Of a stretch of DNA of 64,000 nucleotides, positions 17,397 to 54,487 are shown piece by piece. Below the pieces are notes generated by a model. The model was not told the DNA's origin and did no database searches. It saw only the letters and a program-made list of their open reading frames with translations. A program made the position numbers and the translations under genes. The DNA lies in the NCBI GenBank assembly GCA_045641305.1, contig JAZUGS010000013.1, positions 421 to 64,420 of the forward strand, written 5' to 3'. Each line of letters opens with the position of its first letter. Within the stretch, counting starts at the first letter, position 1. Source of the stretch: Candidatus Nanosyncoccus sp. (GTDB taxonomy: Bacteria; Patescibacteriota; Saccharimonadia; Saccharimonadales; Saccharimonadaceae).

Positions 17397-18187
17397 AAAT
17401 TTTAGACGGAAAAGAACTTGCAGGCTTTATTAAAGAACGACAATATCACGTCGTTTCTGGAATGCACCGCAAACCGAAATTGTTGATTATTCGTGATAGC
17501 GATAATCCCGTAATTACGAAATATGTTGAGCTTAAAAAACGCTACGGTGACGATATTGGCGTAGTAGTAGAAGATTTTTACGCAAGATCGACAGACGAAA
17601 TTCGCGAGAAAGTTTTGGCAGCGAATATCGATACATCAATAGACGGAATAATCATTCAGCTGCCAATTATTGAGCGTGAGAAAACCGATGAATTGACGGG
17701 GCTGATTGCGGCGGAAAAAGATGTGGATGGGCTTAGTGATAATGGCGATTTTGATTCGGCAACCGCCACGGCAATTAATTGGCTACTGGCTGGATACGGG
17801 ATTGAAATGTCGCAGGCGGCAATCGCATTGGTGGGGCGTGGCAAGTTGGTGGGGGCGCCCCTCTACAAAATGTGGACAAATTCAGGATACCACGTAACGA
17901 TGTTCCATAGAGGTGATGACTTGACAAAGCTTAAGGATTTTGATATAATAGTGACAGCGACTGGTAGTCCGCGTTTGATTTTGAATGATTATGTAAAATC
18001 TGGCGCCGTAATAGTGGACGCAGGGACTGCTTCGGAAAATGGGGTTCTAATGGGTGATGTTGATGATACCATAAGAGAGCGGACCGATCTTGCTGCCATT
18101 ACGCCAAAAATTGGCGGCGTGGGACCTTTGACCGTAACCTGCTTGTTCGAGCATGTGATTGAGTCCGCAAAAAGCAAAAGCGCCTAG
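17393..18187 (+). CDS. folD: Bifunctional methylenetetrahydrofolate dehydrogenase/cyclohydrolase
   Basis: ILDGKELA, DGIIIQLP, EKDVDG and TPKIGGVGPLTV motifs. Confidence 0.93.
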   Translation: MKILDGKELAGFIKERQYHVVSGMHRKPKLLIIRDSDNPVITKYVELKKRYGDDIGVVVEDFYARSTDEIREKVLAANIDTSIDGIIIQLPIIEREKTDELTGLIAAEKDVDGLSDNGDFDSATATAINWLLAGYGIEMSQAAIALVGRGKLVGAPLYKMWTNSGYHVTMFHRGDDLTKLKDFDIIVTATGSPRLILNDYVKSGAVIVDAGTASENGVLMGDVDDTIRERTDLAAITPKIGGVGPLTVTCLFEHVIESAKSKSA

Positions 18188-18229
18188 TGGGCGCTTTACT
18201 TTAGAAGGAGGAAGTGATAGAATGTAGAC

Positions 18230-18300
18230 ATGGATGAGCTCTAGAAACTCATCGTTTTGGTTGGTGATTACTGTTCTGTTTGAACAGTAATCTTTTTAAT
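18230..18300 (+). ncRNA. Candidate antisense (antitoxin) sRNA to copy 2 peptide mRNA
   Basis: A TTTACT...TGaTAGAAT promoter at about 18195-18223 is followed by hairpin GATGAG/CTCATC, then terminator ATTACTGTT-loop-AACAGTAAT plus a T tract. Confidence 0.6.
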
Positions 18301-18342
18301 TTTAGGCTTTACTACAAGTTTGAAATGAAATTCAATCTCCAT
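18268..18342 (-). CDS. 24-aa small peptide MEIEFHFKLVVKPKIKKITVQTEQ, candidate type I toxin (copy 2)
   Basis: AAGGAGG SD; promoter TTGCAA-N16-TATTAT at about 18485-18512; paralog of 1248-1322. Confidence 0.7.
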   Translation of the reverse strand: MEIEFHFKLVVKPKIKKITVQTEQ

Positions 18343-18575
18343 AGCATCCTCCTTAGTTTTTGTTTTTATCTAACTAAACTTTGGGGGACTTCACCCAACT
18401 TATCTAGAATTGTCACGATTTATAAATCCCCCTCACACGAAGGATCTATAATGTTCGAAAATTAAAAATCTCCAACCCGATGTCTATAATACATAGATTG
18501 TGTAGTTTTGCAACCCCGTGAGAAAATTTTGTGAAAGATAGGGAAATTTTAAGCCTAGGCGGGATGAATAAACTA

Positions 18576-21500
18576 CTATGCAATGCCAAAGAAAGTGCGT
18601 ACTTCGGGCTTGAGGTTTTGTTTGAGGCGCGGATTTGTTTGAATACGATTTTTAATAGCTGCCAAATCTCCTGCAACTGGGGAACCGCTCATACTGCTAC
18701 TACCGGCAATAGCTTCTACCATATCAATAGACATCTGGCTCCATTGGGTATCGGAGAAAGATTTGAGAATGCCACTACGATCTGTAGTACAACGTTTTTG
18801 AAGAAGCTGTAATGCATATTGGCGGTCTTCGCCTTTAGCAGCGAAAGCAAGGTTAGCAATTTGTGGCGATGAGATAGCATTAAGAACTCCACTATTATTG
18901 GTTCCAAGTATAAACTTAATAGCATCTTTATTGGCAGTATTGAAGCCATTATCACCAAGTGGCGCTAGGTAGGCTCCAAGCGAACTTACTCCACCATCTG
19001 CTCTTGGCGCAGCAGTACCTTCAACAAATTCTTTAAAGCTGCCAGAGCCGCCAGCAGCAACATATTTACCATATTGTTTAGCAATTGGTTCAGACATAGT
19101 AGCCATGAAATCTGAAACTGTTTTACGAACGAATGGATCTGTAATGTTAGAGTTATAAACAACGGACATAATGTCTTCAACGCCACCCTTGTCATAGATA
19201 TCTTTGAGTGCAGCACCAACGCGGTTGGTATCAGCATTAGAATTAATGATCTCAGAGGCAAGTACTTTCTTAACATCGCCACGAGTTTGACGAGCAAATT
19301 CTTCGGCATGTTCCTTGAAGCGAGCAGCATCTTGACGTTCTCTTGCAAGACTGGTGGCACGCTCATGAGAGATACGAATTTCACCAACGGCATTAGTGGC
19401 GCTTTCTAACTCGTATTGGTTAGAAAGCTTGTTGGTGCCAGTGTCAACGGCCTGCGTGAGCTGTGCGGTGGTCTGGCCAAGAGTAGCAAGGGACGGCATT
19501 GCGGCGGTGAATGCGGGTCCGGCTACTCTGGCCGCTGCGGCAGCTAATTTATCATCCACTCCAACAAGATTGGCAATTTCTTGAAGTGATTTCCCTGTAA
19601 AGTTTGTGCCACTACTCGATAATGCGTTAGCAAAATCTATTTGACCTTGGCTAAATGTGCCGTTAGTGTTACTAGTAATATACGAAAGACTTCCCGCCAT
19701 AGCTGCTGCAAGAACCGGAGCAAGTGCGTTATTGCTAGAGACACCTGAAACACCACGCATAGCAGTGAGGATATCCTGAGAGGATTTGCCAGCCAAAGAT
19801 GCCCCGGTAGCATCTTGAAGCTTGCGGGCAAGCTCGCGTTGACCGTTAGTATAAGCGCCCGTGGTATCATTGATAATAGAAGCAAGATTACCGGCTTTAG
19901 CAGCACGACTTACGGCTGCGAGTTCACTAGATGGCGGCAGCGAACCATTTTCTGGTAGATTACCTAGTATTGCTTCTCTGCTGATATTAGTATCTTTCAG
20001 TCTGTCTGCGGCTTGGTTGGCAGATACAGTGTCTTTAAGTTGCTGACCAGATTTGATAGCGGCCGCAAGACGACTAGTCTCTGCAGAACCAACACCGTAT
20101 TCAGATTCAAATGTACGAATAGCGTCAGCCTTGCCAAGTGTGCTGTTAATCTGTGAACCAGCATCCGTGAAAGCATTCTGGCGGGCGGCTGTACGCAATT
20201 CTTCGGCATTCGTTTCGGCGTGGCGTTCGGCATTTCCAGCACCATTAGCTTGCTGCGCAGATTGCTGGCGATAAACGCCTTCTGCAATTAAGGCATCGCT
20301 AGCAAAGCGATTGTTTTCGCGTTCTAATCTGCGTTTGGTGTCCGCTTGGTTAATAGAAGCAAGGCGTGCAGCACGAGCATCGCTGAGTTTGTATTTGGAG
20401 CTGTCTATCTTTTCGTTTAGCTTGTTGTAATCTTTTAGATCTTGGCCTTTTAATTCTTCCCCACTGCGTATACGCTGGCGGAAACCTTGCATCTTGCTAC
20501 GCTCTGCTTCGTTTAGCGCTCTATCCTGGCGTCCTTCCAGACGACGACGCGCACGATTATCTAGGCCACCCTGGATACGATTGCGGCCAAAATTTTGACC
20601 TCGTTTGTAGGCTTCTGTGCCTTTGGCGGCATTAAGACCAGATTGGTAACCACGTTTGAGGCTATTACCAATGCCGGCGAGTTTTTCACCTACCATACCA
20701 AGACCAGATAATGTCTTTTTAAGTAAGGACGGGAGAATAAGCCATGGCATGAATGATGCAATTAATGCAACCATAGCCATTGGAAATTCTAATTGTGGAC
20801 TAGAAAAAGCAATGGCACGAACTACAAAGCTTAAGCCATACATAGCGCCACAAATTGGATAGACTAAGAGTGCTGCTTTAAATACATTCCACCATTTTTT
20901 GAATAGGATTTGAGTGTTAGGCAAAATATAACAAGCGCAAGCGAGTGGCGCGAGGCCAATGAATAATGTAATGATAAGAATGCGCGCAGCAAGAGAGGCG
21001 AAGAACATTGTGACAGAGACAACGACAATAAGCAATACAAGAACAGCGATAATTACAATAAGACCAACGCCACTAGCACCTGCACCAGCAACAAGAGTGA
21101 TTCCTGAAGCTAATGCTCCAACTCCGGCAGCAGCACCGCCAGCTACAGCAATAAAGCTACCAACAATATCTGAGACAGTAACGCTCTCTGCCTTGCTATA
21201 ACCAGGCATTCTTTGCGCAATGATTTGGAAAAGCTGGTTAAGACTAGTACCAAGAATGTTAGAAAGATCCACAAGCACTTGGCAAATAATAAAGCTTAAG
21301 TTAATTAGTATGGCCATTGCAATAAGGCGCGGAAGAATCTTTTTAATGCCGTAATTATCTATGCCTACACCTGTAAGTTGAGAAAATATGACTACTAGAA
21401 GAACAACAATGATTAGCACGTTGGCAATATCACGGAAGGCCGCCCATGCCTCGTGTGCTCCACTATTTGAATCATAGAGGTCTGTTTTTACTTCAAGCCA

Positions 21501-50549: not shown

Positions 50550-50635
50550 ACATAAAAGTCCCGCCATCCCCCAGGATGGTGACGGGATTGTATGGTTTTG
50601 TAGTTAACTAGCCTAGCTAGTTAACTTTTTTAGTT
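50550..50635 (+). ncRNA. Candidate antisense sRNA to copy 3 peptide mRNA
   Basis: TGaTATAAT at about 50538-50546, hairpin TCCCG..CATC/GATG..CGGGA, terminator GTTAACTAG-loop-CTAGTTAAC plus T6. Confidence 0.55.
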
Positions 50636-50694
50636 TTCAATCTCTTGATTGAGAGTTTAATACTAAACTTAAAGAATTTAATCTCGAAGCTCAT
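50617..50694 (-). CDS. 25-aa small peptide MSFEIKFFKFSIKLSIKRLKTKKVN, candidate type I toxin (divergent copy 3)
   Basis: AAAGGAG SD; promoter TTGCAA-N17-(TGc)TATCCT about 150 nt upstream; same stop-in-hairpin layout as copies 1 and 2. Confidence 0.6.
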   Translation of the reverse strand: MSFEIKFFKFSIKLSIKRLKTKKVN

Positions 50695-51027
50695 ATTTTC
50701 ACTCCTTTCCGCTGGGAGACCTCTAATAGCCTGGGTCTATCGTTCAGCAAGATCGCCCGTCAAACCCTCAAAGAAACTTTAAGAATTGGCACCTCGCCAG
50801 AACAACTAAAAATTTTAACGAACCACACGGGGAGGATAGCATGGCTGGGATGGTTTTGCAACCGCATGAAAAATATTTGTGGAAGCTAAGGAAATTTTAA
50901 GCCTAGGCAGGATGGGTTTTACGCCAAAGTGCCAAGTTTTTATCCTCTTGCGCTTTGGGTTTGTTTGGTGTATAATGTGGGGGTAAATCCCGTAAGGGTC
51001 GGCCCTGCTTAAGCGGGGAAAACAATC

Positions 51028-51420: not shown

Positions 51421-51648
51421 GTTTACTCCTATTTTAATTTAACAAAAAAACGCGCTGAGCGCGGTAGCGCGATTGTAGCGCGGATGGGTGGATTTTGCAA
51501 CCCCATGAGAATTTTTAAGCCTAGGCGGGATAGTTATAGATGATAGCCATAATAAGTGGCTATTTTTGGGCTTAGGGAAGGTGCGGCATAATAAAATAGT
51601 AGGTAGTGGGCAAAAGGTGGGAAGGAACAATAATTAAAGGAGGATAGC

Positions 51649-53732: not shown

Positions 53733-53739
53733 AAATTTG

Positions 53740-53990
53740 AGAAGATCGAGGGGCGAACACGCGGAACTAGGAACCGCCGAAACCCTAGCGAGCGACACAA
53801 CGCACGGACATGCCGTTGTACCGATTGTTGTTGTTGGACGGGTTGACGTTACTGGAATTGAAGTTCAAGTTGTACGCGTTGCTGCTATTGTTGGACGTAG
53901 ACGACCAGTAGTTGCCGTTGTTGCCGGTATTGTAGACAGCACCGTAATTTCCGTTGTAGTTGCCACTACGCAGGAAGTAGAAAGGCGAAA
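53740..53990 (-). ncRNA. DGR template region (TR)
   Basis: 251-bp homolog of 54237-54487; the minus strand carries 20 AAC/AAT codons and no upstream start of its own. Confidence 0.95.
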
Positions 53991-54196: not shown

Positions 54197-54236
54197 TACA
54201 TGCAGTAATAACCTAAAGCGTTTTTTCTCCGAGTTC

Positions 54237-54487
54237 AGAAGATCGAGGGGCGAACACGCGGAACTAGGGACCGCCGAAACCCTAGCGAGCGACACAACGC
54301 ACGGACATGCCGCGGTACCGATTGAGGTCGTTGGACGGGTTGACGCTACTGGAATTGAAGTACAAGTAGTACGCGCAGCTGCTATTGGTGGACGTAGACG
54401 ACCAGTAGCGGCCGTAGCGGCCGGTACCGTAGACAGCACCGTAAAGCCCGAGGTAGAGGCCACTACGCAGGAAGTAGAAAGGCGAAA
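54237..54487 (-). repeat. DGR variable region (VR) plus IMH
   Basis: 26 mismatches to the TR by hand alignment: 25 at TR adenines and one non-adenine difference (54269 vs 53772) after the stop codon. Confidence 0.95.

Follow-up and report, generated by a model that had tools for sequence, protein, structure and literature searches.

The window analyzed here, a 64,000-nucleotide (nt) stretch of Candidatus Nanosyncoccus sp. (assembly GCA_045641305.1, contig JAZUGS010000013.1), carries two close copies of a small cassette, copy 1 at 1072..1421 on the plus strand and copy 2 at 18512..18165 on the minus strand, which on the evidence of its sequence is probably a type I toxin-antitoxin-like system, with a peptide that is atypical in not being hydrophobic and a leader that would mimic the antisense RNA. 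The interval 18185-18512, which a preliminary description had singled out as the second copy of a peptide/antisense module, corresponds to a complete small predicted transcription unit on the minus strand, and the existence of this second copy was borne out by a genome-wide BLASTN count, in which exactly two close copies (100% and 91% identical) were found in the 620-kb assembly. A 52-nt probe taken from copy 2 likewise matches only 1234-1285 (plus strand, one mismatch) and 18305-18356 (minus strand), with zero matches expected by chance. We envisage that the promoter drives an mRNA of about 310 nt, in which a folded leader of 138 nt precedes a strong ribosome-binding site and an open reading frame (ORF) of 24 codons, and that this mRNA folds back on itself, with the anti-Shine-Dalgarno sequence of copies 1 and 2 pairing with the ribosome-binding site, so that the full-length mRNA would be poorly translated. 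An antisense RNA would dock on the loop of the second of two 3' hairpins, in competition with the 5' untranslated region (5'UTR), and the long duplex that follows would leave the mRNA blocked or destroyed. The peptide would be harmful if produced in excess, and the copies would diversify their overlap region in such a way that each antisense RNA favours its own mRNA.

Selection on RNA structure, already proposed from the two copies, is strongly supported by the comparison of 95 distinct loci, since the covariation, whose disappearance in a larger alignment had been named beforehand as decisive, persisted. It concerns hairpin 1 (GATTACTGTTC/GAACAGTAATC, 18266..18292), which encloses the ORF stop codon, and hairpin 2 (stem GATGAG/CTCATC, loop UUUCUAGAG, 18233..18253), whose loop includes the sequence UCUAGA at 18240..18245, both of them readable on either strand. 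Across the alignment, which was fitted to a covariance model and whose sequences are mutually related, 93.2% of the stem cells of the two hairpins pair, against 24-50% in slid controls, all 17 pairs show compensatory changes, and 332 cells are changed on both sides, compared with 89 in shuffles. Compensatory change was found in nine of the nine pairs of hairpin 1, while the stem of hairpin 2 is 95-97% paired, with each pair covarying and the loop core CUAG invariant. Most of the core pairs are Watson-Crick and can serve either strand; one pair of hairpin 1, a C.A on the sense strand in 48 of the 95 loci, is a G.U on the antisense strand, and another pair of hairpin 1, together with the loop-closing pair of hairpin 2, is a U.G on the sense strand. 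Because these wobbles are strand-specific, both strands appear to be read as structured RNA. The comparison shows that compensatory change preserves both hairpins, with evidence for either strand.

The ORF of copy 2, as given by the ORF listing (18268..18342, minus strand), comprises 24 codons plus the stop and encodes the peptide MEIEFHFKLVVKPKIKKITVQTEQ; that of copy 1 (1248..1322, plus strand) encodes MEIEFHFKLVVKPKIKKVTVQLER, and the initial 17 residues are the same in both, as had been noted before. Intact homologous ORFs are present in about 73 loci, with 21 to 30 codons, frame-preserving insertions and deletions, and the consensus peptide MEIEFYF(K/R)F(K/V)RKPK(T/N)KKVTVVVEDEQ. Third codon positions show 2.3 times as much entropy as the others, and synonymous changes make up 72% of the single-base codon differences, where 18% would be expected, a pattern by which the ORF is judged to be a real coding sequence under purifying selection as protein. 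A small protein-coding gene (below about 60 amino acids) selected as protein, one of the traits by which type I systems are recognized, is therefore found in this family. The peptide itself is basic, beta-strand-prone and charged throughout, and its longest hydrophobic run is of about five residues.

On the opposite strand, a predicted antisense RNA gene occupies 18195..18305 (plus strand), with a -35 element TTTACT (18195..18200), a 17-nt spacer and an extended -10 element TGaTAGAAT (18215..18223). In most of the 95 loci a sigma-70-type antisense promoter ends 9-10 nt before hairpin 2; its score is at least 10 in 74% of the loci and in 3.5% of shuffled flanks, and it is often a perfect TTGACA-17-TATAAT, with sequences that vary between subfamilies. 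The predicted antisense RNA of copy 2 would start at about 18230, measure about 75 nt and end with hairpin 1 and the U-tract TCTTTTTAATTTT (18293..18305, plus strand, that is, on the antisense side), and, since hairpin 1 is followed by this U-tract on the plus strand, the two are predicted to form the intrinsic terminator of the antisense RNA. Its predicted fold begins with a short 5' end and a hairpin 2' whose loop of 9 nt reads CUCUAGAAA; a spacer and a hairpin 1' come next, followed by CUUUUUAAUUUU, and the molecule would be fully complementary to the last eight codons and the 3'UTR of the mRNA. In this model it is laid out like a convergent, 3'-overlapping type I antitoxin RNA. Wherever both ORF and leader are intact, an antisense promoter that is at least plausible is present, and at least 10 loci retain the hairpins and the antisense promoter after loss of the ORF start or the leader; such an asymmetric decay, in which the ORF is lost while the antisense part is kept and not the reverse, fits toxin-antitoxin behaviour.

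The sense transcript of copy 2 would be driven by a predicted promoter at 18486..18513 on the minus strand, read from the sequence as a -35 element TTGCAA (18513..18508), a 16-nt spacer and a -10 element TATTAT (18491..18486), which places the predicted transcription start at about 18480. The same arrangement, GGGGTTGnnn-N16-18-TAnnnT, precedes the cassettes of relatives too. There follows a structured 5'UTR of about 138 nt (18343..18480, minus strand), with a hairpin P1 at about 18451..18419, a C-run at 18388..18383 and a strong Shine-Dalgarno sequence AAGGAGGA (18354..18347, minus strand) that is conserved in the family, and the fold of the whole copy-2 mRNA has a z-score of -5.1. Hairpin P1 is conserved in 34 relatives, with one-sided Y-G changes and compensatory changes in flanking and inner pairs; the P1 loop of relatives bears a variable inserted hairpin that is absent from both window copies and whose loop region holds the conserved motif GGUGCGGUG (alignment A6, columns ~106-116).

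Two elements of the leader covary with two sites in the 3' part of the same mRNA, with which they are predicted to pair. The hexamer UCUAGA (18403..18408, minus strand) would pair with the apical loop of hairpin 2, and in 66 loci 99.2% of the cells of this contact pair, the outer pairs occurring as the types UA/GC/UG/CG/AU and AU/GC/CG, four or five per outer pair. In a separate count, 125 of the 138 outer cells were Watson-Crick, the maximum reached by permutation being 94. The hexamer/loop combinations observed are UCUAGA/UCUAGA, UCUAGG/CCUAGA, GCUAGA/UCUAGC, GCUAGG/CCUAGC, ACUAGG/CCUAGU and CCUAGC/GCUAGG, and in the two divergent members of the source genome the contact is CCCAGG/CCUGGG. 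A pairing of the 5'UTR hexamer with the loop of the antisense RNA was also considered and was rejected, with 41 mismatched cells in the non-palindromic variants compared with three for the sense loop. The second element, the U-rich stretch UUUUUAAUUUU (18468..18458, minus strand), is the complement of the lysine-codon A-tract (18303..18293) and forms with it an 11-nt perfect inverted repeat in both copies. Over 47 loci, cognate leader and A-tract sequences are more complementary than non-cognate ones, none of 2000 permutations reaching the observed value, and the classes observed include UUUUAGUUU/AAACUAAAA, UUUUGUUU/AAACAAAA, UUUUUAUUUU/AAAAUAAAAA and UUUAUGUUU/AAACAUAAA. A further contact is predicted between the ribosome-binding site and the anti-Shine-Dalgarno sequence UUCCUCCUU of the 3'UTR (the UCCUCCUU stretch; 18205..18213, minus strand), which lies inside the spacer of the antisense promoter, the pairing being predicted with a probability of 0.8 for copy 2 and 0.95 for copy 1. 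A ribosome-binding site hidden by long-range pairing, another trait of type I systems, is in this way found as a prediction with covariation support.

Because the two leader elements have the sequence of the loop and of the 3' tail of the antisense RNA, leader and antisense RNA address the same two sites. We tentatively propose, as a possibility of rather modest probability, that the 5'UTR is a built-in mimic of the antitoxin, its loop-like hexamer and its U-rich, tail-like stretch pairing in cis with the hairpin-2 loop and the A-tract. The leader in cis and the antisense RNA in trans would then compete for the two sites and so set how open the ribosome-binding site is, and copies within one genome would rapidly re-code the shared address, through its stems, spacer and loop ends, and stay independent of each other.

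The differences between copies 1 and 2 fall mostly where the predicted antisense RNA overlaps the mRNA. From the predicted start of transcription to the lysine-codon A-tract there are three differences in 185 positions, whereas the stretch between the A-tract and the predicted antisense start has 17 in 71 (Fisher p = 1.4e-5). Four stem pairs are altered on both sides with pairing retained, namely G-C to A-U and C-G to U-A in hairpin 1 and A-U to G-C and G-C to A-U in hairpin 2, a fifth goes from C.A to U-A, and none of the stem differences disrupts pairing. The preliminary description had most of the differences as compensatory changes in stems, which was somewhat overstated, about 9 of the 17 differences of the antisense overlap being in stems and the remainder in the hairpin-1 loop and the spacer. 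Its mention of diverged loops was mistaken, as the hairpin-2 loop is the same in both copies and the divergence resides in the stems, the hairpin-1 loop and the spacer. Among 17 within-genome pairs of copies from other genomes, the antisense-overlap region differs by 19% and the 5' parts by 3% on average, although misalignment of hairpin 1 by MAFFT may inflate the former value. This concentration of differences in the antisense overlap, repeated in the 17 pairs elsewhere, counts in favour of the suggestion that the two antitoxins do not cross-react; on the other hand, the predicted non-cognate duplexes between copies 1 and 2 still reach about -75 kcal/mol, against -130 for the cognate ones, so the orthogonality of the copies, as modelled, is plausible but unproven.

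Homology between the two copies spans only promoter to terminator. In four gut metagenomes, contigs of related strains carry the copy-2 form of the region behind a copy-1-type upstream flank, from which it follows that the copy-2 form is the common one and that copy 1 of this genome is derived; these mosaic alleles point to recombination between the copies.

The cassette belongs to a family found within one genus, whose genomes carry homologues about 70% identical. A covariance model built from the segment between the Shine-Dalgarno sequence and hairpin 2 gave matches in 72 of 201 genomes of the genus (36%), up to six per genome and about 95 distinct members, often at contig ends, and it gave no match in 217 other genera of the order, a search from which very divergent members could escape. 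The model barely detects even the third copy of the window (E = 0.004). The relatives, which go under the names Candidatus Nanosyncoccus or Candidatus Saccharibacteria, were obtained from the guts of ruminants. In the source genome the family has four members. Besides copies 1 and 2 there is a divergent third at 50556..50709, and the fourth lies on a different contig (C16:5202-5352; L094 803-953, minus strand). The peptide of this fourth member, MSLEFKFFKFSIKLSVKRLKH, ends four codons earlier than that of the third, its contact pair is CCCAGG/CCUGGG, and it faces a 245-amino-acid (aa) ORF of unknown function; its 3' end, with the anti-Shine-Dalgarno sequence and the terminator AAGTAATGCGCC..GGCGCTTTACTT, is of the copy-1/2 type, the remainder being very different. 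Some relatives have tandem clusters, such as a 3-kb stretch of L045 (G066:C1:164200-168700) with four model matches, of which two have no ORF start, and two complete cassettes head to tail in L008 (G026:C4).

Several observations weigh against a type I toxin-antitoxin system. The hydrophobic, membrane-spanning toxin usual in such systems is not found in this peptide family, whose members are cationic and have no membrane-spanning hydrophobic segment. Pfam gives no match for four family peptides and Rfam none for the locus (a scan of 17900-18800 at E up to 10 returned only chance-level hits, the best one being of 21 bits to ncr952, whose gathering score is 100), and the curated type I families RatA, SR4, Sok, Sib, Fst, Ldr and Hok are not matched in Rfam or Pfam. 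The third, otherwise divergent cassette keeps the anti-Shine-Dalgarno sequence, yet no pairing with the ribosome-binding site is predicted there. Since the family is confined to one genus and its loci are related, the shuffle controls overstate independence. As to expression, host-labelled RNA runs gave zero reads on the window, and the public runs that hold the sequence consist of DNA-like metagenome contigs of related strains; contigs of family members (79-1141 nt) occur in two bovine gut metatranscriptome runs but are ambiguous and strandless, and, as one of them is 1.1 kb, DNA carry-over is possible. The character of the peptide, basic, free of membrane-spanning hydrophobic segments and strongly conserved as protein, is also what speaks for the main rival explanation, which takes it as a non-toxic micropeptide (regulatory, ribosome- or nucleic-acid-binding, or a cationic anti-host-bacterium peptide) tuned by a cis-antisense RNA. 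We consider this rather unlikely, because many copies and a patchy presence, in just over a third of the genomes of the genus, are typical of type I families, and because it accounts less readily for the loci that retain only the antisense part, for a fast divergence limited to the antisense overlap between copies of the same genome and for the heavy predicted self-locking of the mRNA; moreover, there is no signal peptide and no export gene nearby.

It could further be argued that there is no antisense RNA at all, and that hairpins 1 and 2 and the promoter-like sites in AT-rich sequence serve only to stabilise 3' ends or to terminate transcription in both directions where genes converge. Both copies do abut a convergent housekeeping gene in a tail-to-tail arrangement with a terminator in common, as had been described: the bidirectional hairpin AAAGCGCC-TAGT-GGGCGCTTT (18177..18197, both strands) serves folD and the cassette, with the folD stop codon TAG (18185-18187) within its loop, and in the homologous terminator of copy 1 (1386..1414) the outer arm contains the tsaB stop codon (1409-1411). 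Promoter-like hexamers are, in addition, frequent in AT-rich DNA. Such an explanation is nevertheless very improbable, given the excess of antisense promoter scores over shuffles and the fixed 9-10 nt between promoter and hairpin 2 despite the differences among subfamilies, the presence of the U-tract after hairpin 1 on the antisense strand only, the one pair kept as G.U only on that strand, and the absence of a convergent gene from about a third of the loci examined, 17 of 26 facing a convergent ORF. The least probable of the explanations considered is a non-autonomous mobile element, MITE-like or another selfish repeat, in which the ORF would be incidental. The many copies, the frequent position of matches at contig ends, as with repeats, and the empty sites in relatives would suit it, about 20 species of the same genus being each without a cassette downstream of folD and of tsaB; with the nearest folD at only 74% identity, the junctions of the empty sites cannot be placed exactly. 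It is contradicted by the lack of terminal inverted repeats, flanking direct repeats or target-site duplications at either copy, by a homology that begins at the promoter and ends at the terminator, and by the clear coding signature of the ORF. Nor does a transposase-like ORF adjoin copy 1 or copy 2, whose neighbours are folD, a gene for a 1426-aa protein, radA, tsaB and tsaE, and a phage collection gave no BLASTN match, while six viral contigs with pattern matches contained no cassette. The earlier statement that neither transposase nor terminal repeats are visible holds for both copies, and its view of the dispersal mechanism as unexplained stands too, there being neither repeats, transposase nor phage copies to account for it and the cassette being missing from both sites in relatives.

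A type I toxin-antitoxin-like cassette of this kind can be compared with several known systems. The Bacillus subtilis loci bsrG/SR4, txpA/RatA and bsrE/SR5 also have a small ORF, a structured mRNA and a convergent antisense RNA, transcribed from a strong promoter of its own, over the ORF end and the 3'UTR, and in loci of the bsrG/SR4 type a loop-loop first contact is expected, as it is for the cassette. In bsrG/SR4, binding at the 3' end also alters the fold around the ribosome-binding site, and the remote control of the ribosome-binding site that we propose is of this kind. The cassette differs from the B. subtilis loci in having no sequence or Rfam similarity to them, in encoding a cationic peptide and not a hydrophobic membrane one, and in a 5'UTR that itself bears copies of the two contact elements of the antisense RNA. 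The predicted 5'-3' closure that hides the ribosome-binding site, and the competition between antisense RNA and internal fold, are in turn reminiscent of hok/sok of plasmid R1 and aapA1/IsoA1 of Helicobacter pylori. In these two systems the antisense RNA lies over the 5' part of the toxin mRNA and activation requires 3' trimming, whereas the predicted antisense RNA of the cassette lies over the 3' end of its mRNA, with no known processing step. Ibs/Sib and Ldr/Rdl of Escherichia coli resemble the cassette in occurring as several diverged intergenic copies beside unrelated genes, without hallmarks of mobile elements, and copy-specific antisense recognition is known for Sib/Ibs, a parallel to the hypervariable overlap region of the cassette. 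Their antisense RNAs, however, span the whole ORF, their toxins are very hydrophobic, and no homology to the cassette was found.

A full-text literature search returned no paper that connects Saccharibacteria or Patescibacteria with type I toxin-antitoxin systems or with the control of toxins by antisense RNA, and peptides of such size are overlooked by gene callers. Saccharibacteria genomes are of about 0.6 Mb, yet a third of the species of this gut and rumen genus keep one to six cassettes, which are for that reason probably not neutral. With about 95 diverged copies and four separately covarying RNA contacts, the family constitutes an unusually clean natural data set for the competition among mRNA, leader and antisense RNA, and for how the regulators of copies that share a cell are kept distinct. 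Should the peptide prove toxic, it would represent a non-membrane type of small toxin, and, if the leader does mimic the antisense RNA, the cassette would embody a new control logic for antisense-regulated micropeptides, in ultra-small episymbiotic bacteria.

With respect to the genes around the cassettes, copy 1 lies beside a short tsaB (1409..1741, minus strand) and tsaE. A truncation of tsaB by the cassette was ruled out, since throughout the genus the 110-aa form, including its C-terminus, is conserved; the short TsaB of the genus, of about 110 aa, covers only positions 27-85 of the 264-position Pfam TsaD model and, as encoded at 1409-1741, is conserved full-length in 21 relatives. The idea that a terminator arm supplies the stop codon of the neighbouring gene was also discarded, because the gene next to the fourth cassette stops short of the hairpin. 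Other cassettes adjoin unrelated genes, namely LiaF-like, Fic, CysS and DNA-alkylation-repair genes. In the folD-recA gap of a Saccharibacteria metagenome-assembled genome from roe deer (L167 2310-2490) there is a small unit in the same direction as folD, with a GGGGGGTTGATT promoter, GAAAGGAGG, a 23-codon ORF (MQIELEEMKVTIKLKITSAKKQK) and a hairpin with the stop codon. This unit, which shares the folD flank, may be very distantly related to the family.

Conserved sequence is also found upstream of the cassettes. About 40 nt upstream of the sense -35 element of copy 2 lies the box AGCCTAGGCGGGAT (18552..18565, plus strand), and the box AGCCTAGRCGGRAT occurs four times in the 620-kb genome, all four in the window (1023-1036, 18552-18565, 50900-50913 and 51518-51531). 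Three of the four lie next to family cassettes, where a GGGGTTGCAA-type -35 element follows about 40-45 nt downstream, and the copy at 1023-1036 is also upstream of the divergent radA promoter. The box may be an operator joining these genes in one regulon. In many loci (for example L012, L076, L036, L053 and L084) a recurring CCAGAGGTGAAAAC..CTTATGC element, often preceded by a AAGCCTAGRCGGAATAG box, is found about 25-60 nt before the sense -35 element, and these recurring elements indicate that the conserved unit extends past the transcribed part in many genomes. Elsewhere in the window, a 254-nt direct repeat, 89% identical, is present at 53737-53990 and 54234-54487, with a spacing of 497 nt.

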